A DNA stretch of 29,656 nt from Octopus sinensis. Taxonomy: Eukaryota. The first letter of the stretch is position 1. Every line of letters begins with the position of its first letter. The position numbers and the translations under genes were made by a program. Location of the stretch: the NCBI RefSeq assembly GCF_006345805.1, contig NW_021832933.1, positions 1-29,656 on the forward strand. Reading direction: 5' to 3'. Shown here piece after piece: positions 11,092 through 27,619 of this stretch. The notes under the pieces were generated by a model. The model saw only the letters and a program-made list of their open reading frames with translations, had not been told where the DNA came from and made no database searches.

Positions 11092-11842
11092 TCAAATCCG
11101 GGATTTGTCCCCGTTAACGAGAGGAGCTGGACCTAACTCAATGCCATAGCAATCAAGGTAGCAGGTGCAGCCCACCCCAAACTTTGAGATGGCTGGTGCC
11201 CATTCTCCTTTGCTATCATGAGGCTTTTTTTGAGCAGGATTTTCTACTGGGAGCATGCCCTTGTTTACCCCCAACCTAATTTTCTTATTTCTTTATTGCC
11301 CACAAGGGGCTACATAAAGAGGGGACAAACAAGGAAGACAAAAGGGATTAAATCGATTACCTCGACCCCAGTGCGTAACTGGTCCTTAATTTATCGACCC
11401 CGAAAGGATGAAAGGCTAGGTCGATCTCGGCGGAATTTGAACTCAGAACGTAAAGACAGACGAAATACTTATTTCTTTACTACCCACAAGGGGTTAAGCA
11501 CAGAGGGGACAAACAACGACAGACAGACGGATTAAGTCGATTATATCGACCTCAGTGTGTAACTGGTACTTATTTAATAGACCCCGAAAGGATGAAAGTC
11601 GACTTCGGCGGAATTTGAACTCAGAACGTAGCGGCAGACGAAATGCCGATAAACATTTCGCCCGGCGTACTAACGTTTTGGCCAGCTCGCCGCCTTCACT
11701 CAACCTTAGTTTCTAGACATAAGTGCTCCTAAGCCCAAGGCCTCTCCCACGAATTTTAAGAAATGTGGTCGAAAACTAGCTCAGAAAGGCAGGGACGCTA
11801 CTCCCTGGGACCCCTTTCGGAGCCCCTCTACCTATTCTACTT
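11092..11842 (-). mobile_element. GC-richer interspersed repeat, possibly an RTE-like 5' region, split by a SINE dimer
   Basis: Minus-strand GTTGGGGGTAAACAAGGGCATGCTCCCAGTAGAAAATCC resembles the GTTGG...GAAGGGCATCC.GCCGTA.AAA motif I recall from RTE-related repeats. CAACCT(T)A occurs on both sides of the inserted SINE. Confidence 0.35.
11281..11696 (-). mobile_element. Family A SINE, head plus 2 tandem bodies
   Basis: Junction GAAATACTTATTTC at 11462-11475. Confidence 0.9.
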
Positions 11843-13857: not shown

Positions 13858-14272
13858 TATTTCTTTATTGCCCACAAGGGGCTAAACATAGAGGAGACAA
13901 ACAAGGACAGATAAAGGGATTAAGTCGATTACATCGACCCCAGTGCGTAACTGGTACTTAATTTATCGACCCCGAAAGGATGAAAGGTAAAGTCGACCTC
14001 GGCGGAATTTGAACTCAGAACGTAGCGACAGACGAAATACCTATTTCTTTACTACCCACAAGGGGCTAAACACAGAGAGGACAAACAAGGATAGAAAAAC
14101 AGATTAAGTCGATTACATCGACCCCAGTGCGTAACTGGTACTTATTTAATCGACCCCGAAAGGATGAAAGGCAAAGTCGACCTCGGCGGAATTTGAACTC
14201 AGAACGTAGCGGCGGGCGACATATCACAAAGCACTTCGCCCGGTATGCTAATGATTCTGCCAGCTCGCCACC
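13858..14272 (-). mobile_element. Family A SINE, head plus 2 tandem bodies
   Basis: Junction GAAATACCTATTTC at 14034-14047. Confidence 0.9.
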
Positions 14273-14789: not shown

Positions 14790-15537
14790 ATTGATTTCAA
14801 ATTTTGGTTCAAGACCAGTTGTAGATAATATGAACTCCAATGCTCAACTAGTACTTATCTATCGACTCCGAAAGAATGAAAGACAAAGTCGACCGTAAGG
14901 GAATTTGAACTCAGAACGTAAAGGCAGACGAAATAACTATTTCTTTACTACCCATAAGGGGATAAACACAGAGAGAACAAAGAAGGACAGACAAACGGAT
15001 TAAGTCGATTATATCGACCCAAGTGCGTAACTGGTACTTAATTTATCGACCCCGAAAGGATGAAAGGCAAAGTCGACCTCGGCAGAATTTGAACTCACAA
15101 CGTAACGGCAGACGAAATACCTATTTCTTTATTACCCACAAGGGGCTAAACACAGAGGGAAAAACAAGGACATACATAGGTATTAAGTCGATTATATCGA
15201 CCCAAGTGCGTAACTGGTACTTAATTTATCGACCCCGAAATGATTAAAGGCAAAGTCGACCTCGGCAAAATTTGAACTCACAACGTAACGGCAGACGAAA
15301 TACCTATTTCTTTACTACCCACAAGGGGCTAAACACAGGGGGGACAAACAAGGACAGACAAACGGATTAAGTCGATTACATCGACCCCAGTGCGTAACTG
15401 GTACTTAATTTATCGACCCCGAAAGGATCATAGGCGAAGTCGACCTCGGCAGAATTTGAACTCAGAACGTAACGGCAGACGAAATACCGCTATGCATTTC
15501 GCCCGGCGTGCTAACGATTCTGCCAGCTCGCAGCCTT
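14790..15537 (-). mobile_element. Family A SINE concatemer: head, 3 young bodies and 1 old-subfamily body
   Basis: Junctions at 14930, 15114 and 15297 (period 183-184). The last body (14790-14937) is more diverged and carries the old tail. Confidence 0.9.
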
Positions 15538-17300: not shown

Positions 17301-18030
17301 AAGGCGATGAGCTGCAGAACCGTAAGCACGTCGGATATAATGCTTAGCGACATTTCGTTCGTCTTCACCAACTGAGGTAAAATATCCGCCATTTTATCTT
17401 TGGTGTGGGGTCGATGTTATCGATTTGAATCTCGTCCCAAATTTGCTGGTCTTGTGCCGAAATTTGAAATTAATAATTAATGTGCTTGAAACAACACGAT
17501 GGCAGAATTGTTAGAATGCCGGTTAAAATGCTTAGCGACATTTCGTTCGTCTTCACCAACTGAAGCAAAATTCCGCCACTTATCCTTTTGTGAGGGGTCG
17601 ATGTTATCGACTTAAATCTCATCCCAAATCTGCTGGTCTTGTGCCGAAATTTGAAATTAATAATTAATGTGCTTGAAACAACACGTTGGCAGAATCGTTA
17701 GCATGCCGGTTAAAATGCTTAGCGACATTTCGTTCGTCTTCACCAACTGAAGTAAAATTCCGCAATTTATCCTTTTGTGAGGGGTCGATGTTGTCGACTT
17801 AAATCTCATCCCAAATCTGCTGGTCTTGTGCCGAAATTTGAAATTAATAACTAATGTGCTTGAAACAGCACGTTGGCAGAATTGTTAGCATGCCGGTTAA
17901 AATGCTTAGCGACATTTCGTTCGTCTGTACGTTCTGGGAACCAGTTGAGCAACGGGGTCGATTTAATCGACTTAGTCCTCTACCCGCAACCGCCTCCAAC
18001 CTGCTGGCATCTGGCCAAAATTTGTAGACA
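17301..18030 (+). repeat. ~187-bp tandem repeat (about 4 units) derived from a decayed family A SINE plus flank
   Basis: TGCTTAGCGACATTTCGTTCGTCT starts at 17341, 17529, 17716 and 17903 (periods 188, 187, 187). Confidence 0.9.
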
Positions 18031-18897: not shown

Positions 18898-19272
18898 CAG
18901 TAGAAACTCGCAATACGAGTGCACCATTGTACGAGTAATTGGCAGTACAAGCCGAGATTCATACGAATTTTTGTTTTGAAGTACAAACGGAAATCCGCAG
19001 TACGAGCAGACAAATAGTCCCATGTTTAAAATAATTTAGTTAATAAATAAATAGGCGCAGGAGTGGCTGTGTGGTAAGTAGCTTGTTTACCAACCACATG
19101 GTTCCGGGTTCAGTCCTACTGCGTGGCACCTTGGGCAAGTGTCTTCTACTATAGCCTCGGCCGACCAAAGCCTTGTGAGTGGATTTGGTAGACGGAAACT
19201 GGAAGAAACCGTCGTATATATGTATGTATATATATATATATATCTATATATATATATATATATAATATATAT

Positions 19273-19353
<81 letters not shown>

Positions 19354-19971
19354 GTGGTAAGTAGCTTGTTTACCAACCACATAGTTCCGTGTTCAGTCCC
19401 ACTGCGTGGCACCTTGGGCAAGTGTCTTCTATTATAGCCTCGGGCCGACCAAAGCCTTGTGAGAGGATTTGGTAGACGGAAACTGAAAGAAGCCCGTCGT
19501 ATATATGTATGTATATATATATATGTATGTGTGTGTTTGTGTGTCTGTGTTTGTCTCCCCAACATCACTTGACAACCGATGCTGGTGTGTTTATGTCCCC
19601 GTTACCTAGCGGTTCGGCAAAAAGAGACCGATAGGATAAGTACTGGGCTTGCAAAAAGAATAAGTCCCGGGGTCGATTTGCTCGATTAAAAGGCGGTGCT
19701 CCAGCATGGCCGCAGTCAAATGACTGAAACAAGTAAAAGAGTAAAGAGTAAGATCAGTTTACACGTTTCTTTTGCATTCTCCCTTTTATAATTGTCGTTT
19801 TACTTGTAACTGCACCTTTTGTGTTTTAAAACTCATAAACTTATTTTTGAGTGGTCTTTGGCGGCTGGAACGGATTAACTGTATTTTAGTTAATTTCAAT
19901 GGGGAAAACCGATTTGTAATACCAGTAAATCGTAAGACGAGGTCTTAAATTTGTACTGCGAAGTATCACTG
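18898..19971. mobile_element. Tigger/pogo-like MITE interrupted by a family B SINE
   Basis: Imperfect TIRs TA|CAGTAGAAACTCGCAATACG and GTACTGCGAAGTATCACTG|TT. Internal CTGGAACGGATTAA...TTTCAATGGGGAAAA is typical of Tigger-like MITEs. Confidence 0.75.
19054..19750 (+). mobile_element. Family B SINE with duplicated 5' half
   Basis: Head+CORE 19054-19214, (TA)n to 19349, second head+CORE 19352-19500, then a single tail. Confidence 0.9.
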
Positions 19972-20067
19972 TTTAGTCAATACGTATGTACATATGCGTG
20001 CATGTATGTTTGTGTGTACATGTGAGTGTGTCTGTGTATGTATACAATACATATGATATATATATAT

Positions 20068-20115
<48 letters not shown>

Positions 20116-20126
20116 TATATATTAAT

Positions 20127-20941
20127 TTTCAACAATTGAGGGAAAATTAATTAATTAATCAATTTCACCAAGTATTCAGTATGCAAAGGGACCATTTAAG
20201 GCGAATTCAAATTAATTACATTAATACACGGGCTTAGTAAAATAAATTACTTTGCCGCATACTGAACTCATTGAAATAAGCATAGCGCTAAAAAAACTTT
20301 TTTAAAACTATTTCTAATACTTAAAGAAAACCTCTCTCATTAGTGTTTGCTCATTCAACTCACGCAAATATGGGGGTAGAGACATTAAAAAATCAAGTGC
20401 AAAGGTTATTTGAGAACGTACGTTTCAAGATTAGTCAACACGACATTTCTATCATCAGCTCAGAACTCCCTGGTTGGACCTGAAAACACTGAAAGTGGGA
20501 GCATACCCTTTCGGCTTCCTCTCGCTTCTGAAGATCTGCTCGTAACTAACATGCCAACAAACCCAAAAATGCAAGCGAAGAATTTCTGCTCTCCCCTTTC
20601 CACCAGCGTGGGTTAAAATCAGTAAACACTATGCTTTTTTCGGTAAGTCCGCGGCATTATATAGAGAGAGATGAATTATAATTTCAACAATTGAGGGTAA
20701 AATTAATTAATTAATCAATTTCACCAAGTATTCAGTATGCAAAGGGACCATTTAAGGCGAATTCAAATTATTACATTATATAAAAGGGCTTAGTAAAATA
20801 AATTACTTTGCCGCATACTGAACTCATTAGAAATAGCAGCTAAAAAAAACTTTTTTAAAACTATTTCTAATACTTAAAGAAAACCTCTCTCATATAGTGT
20901 TTACTCAATTCAACTCACGCAAATATGGGGGTAGAGACATT
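20127..20941 (-). mobile_element. Non-coding partial-tandem element (555-bp unit, ~1.47 copies) in (TA)n, carrying a hammerhead motif; retrozyme or non-autonomous Penelope-like
   Basis: Direct repeats 20127-20386 and 20682-20941 (offset 555 at both ends), (TA)n on both flanks, no credible ORF, hammerhead motif at 20411-20462. Confidence 0.75.
20411..20462 (-). ncRNA. Type I hammerhead ribozyme motif with palindromic stem III
   Basis: TGAG-CTGATGA-T AGA AAT GTC GTGTT GAC TAA TCT T-GAAA-CG TA CG-TT-CTCA. Complete core, 4-bp stem I, CGTACG stem III, GUU cleavage triplet. Stem II is imperfect (U.U first pair, 3x3 internal loop). Confidence 0.65.
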
Positions 20942-20992
20942 TATATATATATATCGTATATATATATCGTATAATATAGAGTCCTTGGGCTG

Positions 20993-21870
20993 AGGCGACG
21001 AGCTGGCCGAAACGTTCGCGCGCCTTGCGAAATGCTTAGAGGTATTTCGTCCGCCGTTACGTTCTGAGTTCAAATTCCGCCGAGGTCGACTTTGCCTTTC
21101 ATCCTTTCGGGGTCGATTAAATAAGTACCAGTTACGCACTGGGGTCGATATAATCGACTCAATCCCTTTGTCTGTCCTTGTTTGTCCCCTCTGTGTTTAG
21201 CCCCTTGTGGGTAGTAAAGAAACAGGTATTTCGTCTGCCGCTACGTTCTGAGTTCAAATTCTGCCGAGGTCGACTTTGCCTTTCATCCTTTCGTGGTGGA
21301 TTAAATAAGTACCAGTTACGCACTGAGGTCGATATAATCGACTTAATCCGTTTGTCTGTCCTTGTTTGTCCCCTCTGTGTTTAGCCCCTTGTGGGTAGTA
21401 AAGAAATAGGTATTTCGTCTGCCGCTACGTTCTGAGTTCAAATTCCGCCGAGGTCGACTTTGCCTTTCATCCTTTCGGAGTCGATTAAATAAGTACCAGT
21501 TACACACTGGGTTCGATGTAATCGACTTTATCCGTTTGTCTGTCCTTGTTTGTCCCCTCTGTGTATAGCCCCTTTTGAGTAGTAAAGAAATAGTTATTTC
21601 GTCTGTCTTTACGTTCTGAGTTCAAATTCCGCCGAGGTCGACTTTGCCTTTCATCCTTTCGTGGTGGATTAAATAAGTACCAGTTACGCACTGAGGTCGA
21701 TATAATCGACTCAATCCGTTTGTCTGTCCTTGTTTGTCCCCTCTGTGTTTAGCCCCTTGTGGGTAGTAAAGAAATAAGTATTTCGTCTGCCGCTACGTTC
21801 TGAGTTCAAATTCCGCCGAGGTCGACTTTGGCTTTCATCCTTTCGGGGCCGATAAATTAAGGACCAGGTG
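20993..21870 (+). mobile_element. Family A SINE concatemer: head, 4 full 184-bp bodies and a partial fifth
   Basis: Unit starts (G/T)TATTTCGT at 21042, 21226, 21410, 21594 and 21778 (period exactly 184). Confidence 0.93.
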
Positions 21871-26854: not shown

Positions 26855-27271
26855 AAGGCGGTGAGCTGACAGAATCGTTTGCGCGCCGGGCGAAATGTTT
26901 AGCATATTTCGTCTGCCGCTACGTTCTGAATTCAAATTCCGCCGAGGTCGACTTTGCCTTTCATCCTTTCGGGGTCGATAAATTAAGTACCAGTTACACA
27001 CTGGGGTCGATGTAATCGACTTAATCCGTTTGTCTGTCCTTGTTTGTTCCCGCTTTGTTTAGCCCCTTGTGGGTAGTAAAGAAATAGGTATTTCGTCTGC
27101 CGCTACGTTCTGAATTTAAAATTCCGCCGAGGTCGACTTTGCCTTTCATCCTTTCGGGGTCGATAAATTAAGTACCAGTTACGCACTGGGGTCGATGTAA
27201 TCGACTTAATCCGTTTGTCTGTCCTTGTTTGTCCTCTCTGTGTTTAGCCCCTTGTGGGTAGTAAAGAAATA
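26855..27271 (+). mobile_element. Family A SINE, head plus 2 tandem bodies
   Basis: Junction GAAATAGGTATTTC at 27081-27094; 14-bp TSD GGTATAAA[G/T]GATGT (26840-26853 / 27272-27285). Confidence 0.93.
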
Positions 27272-27619
27272 GGTATAAATGATGTAGCACTGTATACACT
27301 GATTATAAGAGACAGTAATACCAAATTTTCTTGCCAACTGGTCATAATTTACTACATCCAAAGTTTCACTCGATTCTTCCATTTTCCGTCTTTAAAAATT
27401 GCGAAAATGATTGATTTTAAAACAGTTAAAAGACTAGAAATATATGGAGGGTGTTTAATCGATTGCATTAACCAAATGATCGTATTTTTACGTTTAGTAC
27501 CTGTATTTTTTCGATCACGATTGGCAGGTTTAGAAATCAGAAAATAAAGAACCGTAATGAGTATTCTCTAAGTTAGTTTCATCTGAGGCTTTTATAATTC
27601 GGCCAAACCACTTAGATAT

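Follow-up and report, generated by a model that had tools for sequence, protein, structure and literature searches.

A non-coding hammerhead repeat family in (TA)n of the Octopus sinensis genome with a Penelope-like pattern of insertion

In the available text of PMC7229834 and bioRxiv 10.64898/2026.07.22.740005, metazoan non-LTR retrozymes are non-coding tandem units of low GC content, each with a type I hammerhead and strongly folded, which are dispersed as monomers to multimers. Penelope-like elements (PLEs) have been proposed there as the mobiliser of retrozymes on the grounds of shared ribozymes, co-occurrence and pLTR similarity, with the mechanism left open. The insertion pattern of PLEs themselves, as set out in the accessible part of PMC8557442, consists of truncation, inversion and a one-sided tail, and a PLE protein was found in vitro to cut and extend both strands, starting from two internal sites, by which the tail is defined, with no difference in start sites between the strands (PMC11167929).

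Here we analyse a locus in a window of 29,656 nucleotides (the whole stretch of Octopus sinensis DNA examined, contig NW_021832933.1), in which a preliminary description had recognised a candidate retrozyme or non-autonomous Penelope-like element. The element is a 5'-truncated member of a young, dispersed, non-coding repeat family with units of ~557 bases. The open-licence literature yielded no octopus or cephalopod hammerhead retrozyme; the family may be catalogued in Repbase, Dfam or preprint supplements, which lie outside that scope.

The window copy and its family

The insert (20127..20941, minus strand) is a single-armed, 5'-truncated copy of what we call family 1 (the names family 1 to 3, 'long' and 'short' were coined in this analysis) and comprises 1.47 units with one hammerhead. 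A full non-coding unit of 555 nt (20387..20941, minus strand; circular fold z -5.6) is followed by a terminal partial unit (20127..20386, minus strand), whose long 3' end at ~20125 abuts (TA)n. The direct repeats of ~260 bp lying ~555 bp apart were recovered as reported, 20127-20386 and 20682-20941 being offset by 553-556 bp and identical at 251 of 255 aligned bases, with 12 gap positions. The (TA)n reported on both sides is likewise present, as the target in the left flank (20047..20126, with 38 copies at 20047-20122) and as an imperfect TA-rich run in the right flank (20942..20978), beyond which a 184-bp repeat array begins. Only two stop-to-stop frames of at least 60 aa overlap 20127-20941, one of 75 aa (20389-20616) and one of 93 aa that enters the insert by 27 bases from the right flank, and the longest ATG ORF in doubled units is 43-58 aa, in agreement with the claim that the insert has no ORF. 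No empty allelic site was found for this locus; the left flank is itself repetitive, and a second copy of the locus was not found.

Other repeats surround the insert. Arrays of 184-187 bp units and a pair of 283-bp repeats occupy window positions 11284-11644, 13858-14211, 14846-15488, 21040-21867 and 26905-27276, as well as 17314-17926 and 19069-19494, and we take both the 184-bp (184-187 bp) and the 283-bp repeats to be octopus SINEs or SINE-like elements. A further dispersed repeat at 19760-19985 has 641 candidates in the genome that are 79-87% identical.

A search of the 2.72 Gb genome with the unit returned 1,782 candidates on many contigs, and the 39 that were scored were mostly 93-98% identical. 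The exact hammerhead-core pattern had 2,095 matches and a looser pattern 3,529, with no match to the reversed control in either case. Since the first 100 core matches fall in 46 loci, we estimate that there are about 1,000 family-1 loci, of which about 120 were read: 38 top loci, the 40 remaining of the position-ordered list, 27 long-array loci and 16 with a variant core. These copies are head-to-tail units of 555-560 nt in (TA)n, up to ~13 per arm, so that the tandem multimers to be looked for are indeed present. The unit has a GC content of 35%, and the family consists of dispersed, non-coding tandem units each with a hammerhead, at least two of them consecutive, the window copy itself carrying only one hammerhead; judged by sequence, the family meets the definition of a non-LTR retrozyme given in the available text of PMC7229834 and bioRxiv 10.64898/2026.07.22.740005. 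Contigs of three sequencing runs guessed to be RNA, out of 20 runs listed from 10 studies under 4 organism labels with none listed as RNA, cover 28-30 of 30 bins and include the head-to-tail joint; because this joint is also present in DNA, these contigs say nothing on expression, cleavage or circles.

Two sister families are colinear with family 1, and all three are non-coding. Family 2 is older, has units of 564-584 nt (~575), aligns along the whole unit with 62% identity in the 3' part, and was represented by 22 exact intact cores (L169-L198, L206-L225). Family 3 is young, has units of ~600 nt and 1,155 candidates, and is 64-66% identical to family 1 in the 3' part.

The hammerhead motif and the structure of the unit

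The motif in the unique part of the insert (20411..20462, minus strand) is that of a minimal type I hammerhead, with a 4-bp stem I, a stem II that opens with U.U and a 2-bp stem III. All the elements described previously lie where they had been placed: UGAG at 20462-20459, CUGAUGA at 20458-20452, stem II at 20451-20427 and GAAA at 20426-20423, and on the 3' side CGUACG-UU, a predicted cut between 20415 and 20414 after GUU, and CUCA at 20414-20411, all on the minus strand. An 8-nt palindrome over positions 15.1-16.1 (20416..20423, minus strand) is predicted to pair two ribozyme copies.

No Rfam match to a hammerhead was obtained in the window or in four loci, and the 96-nt motif region folded alone does no better than its shuffles (z +1.0), so that the status of the motif rests on comparison with other copies. 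The 2,095 exact genome matches against none for the reversed pattern indicate that it did not arise by chance. The core (CUGANGA, GAAA and UH, with stems I-III in type I order) is intact in 141-151 of 151 rows, and the stems covary across the three families, both sides of stems I and II differing between families; the conservation of the core and the covariation of the stems, which the preliminary description had listed as checks, are thus both observed. The sister families keep the hammerhead through compensatory changes together with a palindromic stem III, and palindromic helix III/loop 3 was found in 170 of 178 locus-by-type records in the form of three different palindromes, which fits the dimer mode described for PLE hammerheads in the available text of PMC4209133. 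RNAalifold recovered stems I and II unprompted. In an alignment of 18 family-1 and family-2 sequences, 93% of cells are paired, 64 with a two-sided change, against 33-46% paired when the alignment is slid, these counts being mostly one family split counted many times.

The core of family 1 is nevertheless atypical: the G10.1-C11.1 pair is replaced by U.U (101 loci) or A.A (~15 loci) and the triplet is GUU, features that count against strong ribozyme activity. Families 2 and 3 have G-C at 10.1-11.1 and mostly GUA or GUC. The hammerhead fold of the monomer has a computed probability of ~5e-5, and the double hammerhead (-18.8 kcal/mol) lies 7.6 kcal/mol above the dimer minimum (-26.4 kcal/mol). 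With a long stem II, G10.1-C11.1 and GUC (L266:4890-5491 and L284-L302), family 3 is the best candidate for a cleavage test.

Whole units of the family are strongly folded, with z scores of -3.0 to -6.1 for six of them (25 shuffles each), and the 3' ends of two autonomous PLEs gave +1.0 and -1.3. A 10-bp helix around the short site (helix 6; 20731..20822, minus strand, arms 20813-20822 and 20731-20740) contains two pairs that change on both sides across aligned copies, and a hairpin rich in AU that immediately precedes the long end on its upstream side (helix 7; 20697..20725, minus strand) is kept in the sister family.

About 20 more minimal hammerhead types with a palindromic stem III occur in the flanks of the fetched loci (L082, L087, L088, L101, L155, L159, L233 and others), some of them in small inverted elements bounded by TA.

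Insert ends, the candidate enzyme and its template

Read in the sense of the hammerhead, the 3' ends of the copies are fixed at two sites ~92 nt apart, at unit positions ~262 (long) and ~165-182 (short), the 5' ends are spread over the unit, and nearly all loci are bounded by (TA)n. Inside the full unit of the window copy the long site falls at 20676..20684 (minus strand), where loose ends joining TA at 20677 were seen in run contigs, and the short site, where two-armed copies end their other arm and where the window copy has no end, at 20760..20780 (minus strand). The long end is a defined end ~290 nt downstream of the predicted cut. Outward-pointing two-armed loci account for 28 of 46 in the unbiased set, and 80 of the 88 resolved two-armed (inverted) inserts combine one long with one short end. 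By set, this pairing holds in 50/51 (two inserts cut by a contig or fetch edge left out, arms below ~40 nt not scored), 20/23 and 10/14 (scored by eye, one duplicated locus counted once), the exceptions including one long/long insert, a compound locus, a chimera and three inserts with an end near 73-80. Such near-strict pairing is not expected from an independent choice of start, which should give it in about half of the inserts. Single-armed copies end long in 16 cases and short in 11. The same two-end pattern was seen by eye in all six visible two-armed inserts of family 3, with a tail of ~100 nt.

A few inserts are unusual. L233, L257 and L274 show a rare third 3' end, which falls around unit position 73-80 (~90 nt upstream from the short site). 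L267 and L268 are mirror copies of one insert with matching TA-side flank, ~0.86 Mb apart, and are probably a segmental duplication. In L266:4128-9001 and L275:1-2178, a family-1 short-end arm, an inverted family-1 piece and a family-3 array of ~10 units, which ends at its own short site, are joined with no TA between the parts, owing either to a template switch or to later fusion.

The family therefore displays the Penelope insertion signature, that is 5' truncation, partial tandems, an inverted 5' arm, a tail at one end and a microsatellite target, and it works like a non-autonomous PLE. The fixed, paired 3' ends and the 5' inversions support the earlier suggestion of Penelope mobilisation into (TA)n. 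We consider it very improbable that the family is instead a satellite amplified through DNA recombination, or a SINE-like element mobilised by a LINE through twin priming: local duplications in long arrays and LINE ORFs near some copies would suit such an origin, but the 3' ends are fixed inside the unit and lack poly(A), the arms point outward from two sites 92 nt apart, and no tRNA gene was found in the window. LINE-type twin priming was itself rejected, as the short end does not track the 5' end of the other arm.

The preliminary description had also placed the 5' end of the window copy just downstream of a cleavage site. The position stands, the predicted cut being 28 nt from 20387, but its meaning does not: of 133 5' ends, only 3 are found 5 nt or less from the cut, where 2.6 are expected, so that a 5' end set by the cut was rejected and the unit start at 20941 is a random truncation point.

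No RT/GIY-YIG ORF is contiguous with the unit in any of 128 loci (78 family-1 and 50 family-2 stretches, 30 of the latter with flanks of 1.5 kb; the 27 long-array loci, most of them TA-ended on both sides, were outside this protein screen), and no PLE protein match was found at the variant-core family-1 and the family-3 loci screened. The uniform linkage to a full RT ORF that would have marked an ordinary Penelope terminal repeat was thus not observed. PLE protein matches were present in 17 of the 128 stretches, 15 of them set apart from the element by (TA)n runs. At L219, the PLE's own end and a (TAA)n run lie between the PLE and the element, which was rejected as a linked copy and is an adjacent independent insertion. 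At L212:4290-5240, a truncated Neptune-type fragment and a family-2 short-end arm face each other head to head across a gap of ~250 nt of other sequence without a TA run, an ambiguous arrangement. We also judge it very improbable that an autonomous Penelope-like element escaped sampling and that the copies are no more than its truncated pLTRs. The sampling leaves some room for this, as 150 of 5,029 GIY-YIG candidates were scored, 50 stretches read, and about 120 of perhaps 1,000 loci covered; against it, units follow one another head to tail up to 13 times with no ORF between them, no screened locus adjoins a PLE ORF, and three colinear families are all non-coding. Taken together, the multicopy unit, the conserved and covarying core and the lack of a contiguous RT ORF at the screened copies favour the original interpretation of a mobile RNA family.

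Candidate enzymes are present in the same genome, in the form of Neptune-type elements with ORFs of 775-781 aa that encode RT and GIY-YIG domains and a CX2-5CxxC motif. Within a 781-aa family, four copies share 98.8-99.6% identity and end in (TA)n, their ends being either short or with a tail of ~35 nt (long), and another Neptune-type family has an inverted arm without a tail. In the 50 GIY-YIG stretches, drawn from 5,029 candidates, no PLE body was found to match the unit in sequence, and a search for partners with the GIY-YIG family, with blastn at low stringency and with a DNA profile combining families 1 and 2 matched only separate TA-bounded elements. Weak AT-rich matches near Neptune pLTRs were rejected as noise. 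A Neptune-type partner is accordingly suggested by shared target, pattern and age, without a sequence match. Autonomous Neptune-type elements at L141:2300-2500 and L036:3520-3640 contain hammerhead-like motifs with altered 5' core letters, ~90-100 nt before the long end.

As to the template, the units of one locus are almost homogeneous: they diverge by 0.6-0.8%, the mean between loci being 3.4%, and mixed family-allele cells within loci number 46 against 1,396 expected. Of 449 within-locus variants, 68 are common to at least two units, some with a period of 2 or 4; assembly errors may account for many of the singletons (126 of 277 are transitions). The distribution of the within-locus variants is not star-like, and one monomer circle would not by itself produce it. 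Variants recurring every 2 or 4 units were seen in the long arrays of L232, L058, L038 and L233, and may reflect multi-unit duplication, a multimeric template or an assembly effect.

A linear template should leave either run-off at the cut or the 5' junction of its source, and neither was seen: 5' ends are not enriched at the cut, TA directly adjoins the 5' end in 26 of 30 single-armed copies, at least two cut sites are crossed by 30 of 73 arms, and an identical inversion junction at an unrelated locus was found in none of 79 cases, the one near-match in coordinates having a different filler. A circle or very long uncut masters therefore remain, and we judge the case for a circular template to be about evenly balanced. 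A serious alternative, to which we give somewhat less credence, is that the same family, with the same borrowed Penelope enzyme, is copied from linear transcripts that are long and mostly uncut and stem from a small number of large master arrays; the ribozyme would be slow or serve only for trimming, and array length would be restored by DNA duplication. Uncut RNA was the main PLE template in vitro, where cleavage needed protein (PMC11167929, one study), and eight of nine Xenopus retrozyme dimers did not cleave, according to the accessible part of bioRxiv 10.64898/2026.07.22.740005. Linear masters would also suit the atypical family-1 core, the existence of arrays of 8-13 units, the higher-order periodicity in the four long arrays, and L111, whose two arms have private variants in common that match unit by unit, counted from the 3' end. 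Over 69 loci, however, the signal of both arms copying one molecule in register did not reach significance (offset 0 in 4 of 11 unit pairs, 2.2 under the null, p 0.16; the set included 27 added loci and excluded 10 complex loci as well as those with fewer than 4 pieces), the L111 variant pair, the one searched, occurs nowhere else in the assembly, and minority variants common to loci are not above chance (32 against 29), so that inheritance of unit-specific variants between loci was not detected.

The explanation that we favour, with about even confidence, is a hammerhead repeat family copied into (TA)n by a trans-acting Neptune-type RT/GIY-YIG protein, most likely from a circular monomer RNA. 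A multi-unit array would be transcribed, and neighbouring hammerheads would pair via the palindrome, cut slowly and release a cut-to-cut monomer to be closed by a host ligase. The borrowed protein would then nick both (TA)n strands and the RT start inside the RNA, at the long site on one strand and at the short site on the other, each cDNA making from 0.2 to over 10 rounds of the template before stopping at random. Truncated ends may join by microhomology to give two-armed inserts, the arms overlapping at 40 of 79 inversion junctions, by 1-13 nt in 39 of them, or one cDNA may join the TA flank, as it would have in the window copy; later exchange at the DNA level probably lengthens and mixes some arrays. 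A bolder reading, possible but in our opinion unlikely, is that a long-lived clade of at least three families of structured, protein-free RNA circles parasitises Penelope-like enzymes of this genome, one enzyme dimer priming both target strands at two sites ~92 nt apart on the same circle and rolling round it; if true, one mechanism would underlie both the tandems of retrozymes and the tail and inversion pattern of Penelope.

Comparison with known systems

The octopus family resembles metazoan non-LTR retrozymes in each of the features listed at the outset, including PLEs as the proposed mobiliser. Its unit of 555-560 nt compares with 150-450 bp in PMC7229834 (2020) and 51-972 bp in bioRxiv 10.64898/2026.07.22.740005, as far as their available text goes. 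Circles and cleavage have been shown for retrozymes in those studies and are predicted for the octopus family, and the accessible parts of the same papers describe no fixed paired 3' ends, inverted arms, (TA)n targeting or cephalopod. It also resembles the non-autonomous PLEs of Chlamys such as MRC1, which are non-coding passengers with multicopy head-to-tail insertions; in the available text of PMC8557442, however, elements of the MRC1 type are without canonical hammerheads and generally match their autonomous partner at the 3' end, a match that was not found for the octopus family in the 50 GIY-YIG stretches.

With PLEs and their pLTR hammerheads, as described in the portions available of PMC4209133, PMC8557442 and PMC11167929, the family shares 5' truncation, partial tandems, an inverted 5' arm and a tail at one end, as well as a microsatellite target and a minimal hammerhead with a palindromic helix III. 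It differs from them in having no ORF, in a tail of ~92 nt (~100 in family 3) instead of 30-40, and in the absence of G10.1-C11.1 from family 1, and the predicted cut lies ~290 nt upstream of the long end, compared with ~90-100 nt in the two local Neptune-type families. The available text of PMC8490949, PMC8969392 and PMC9977147 leaves this comparison unchanged.

We conclude that the element is a further member of the non-LTR retrozyme/non-autonomous Penelope class, for which self-cleavage and a circle are inferred. Given an RNA of 557 nt with two mapped start sites and a genome that also contains young, intact Neptune-type ORFs, the use of circles by PLE reverse transcriptases and the coordination of start sites become testable, and the PLE insertion signature, found copy after copy in a non-coding family of retrozyme type, constitutes genomic evidence for the link between retrozymes and PLEs.
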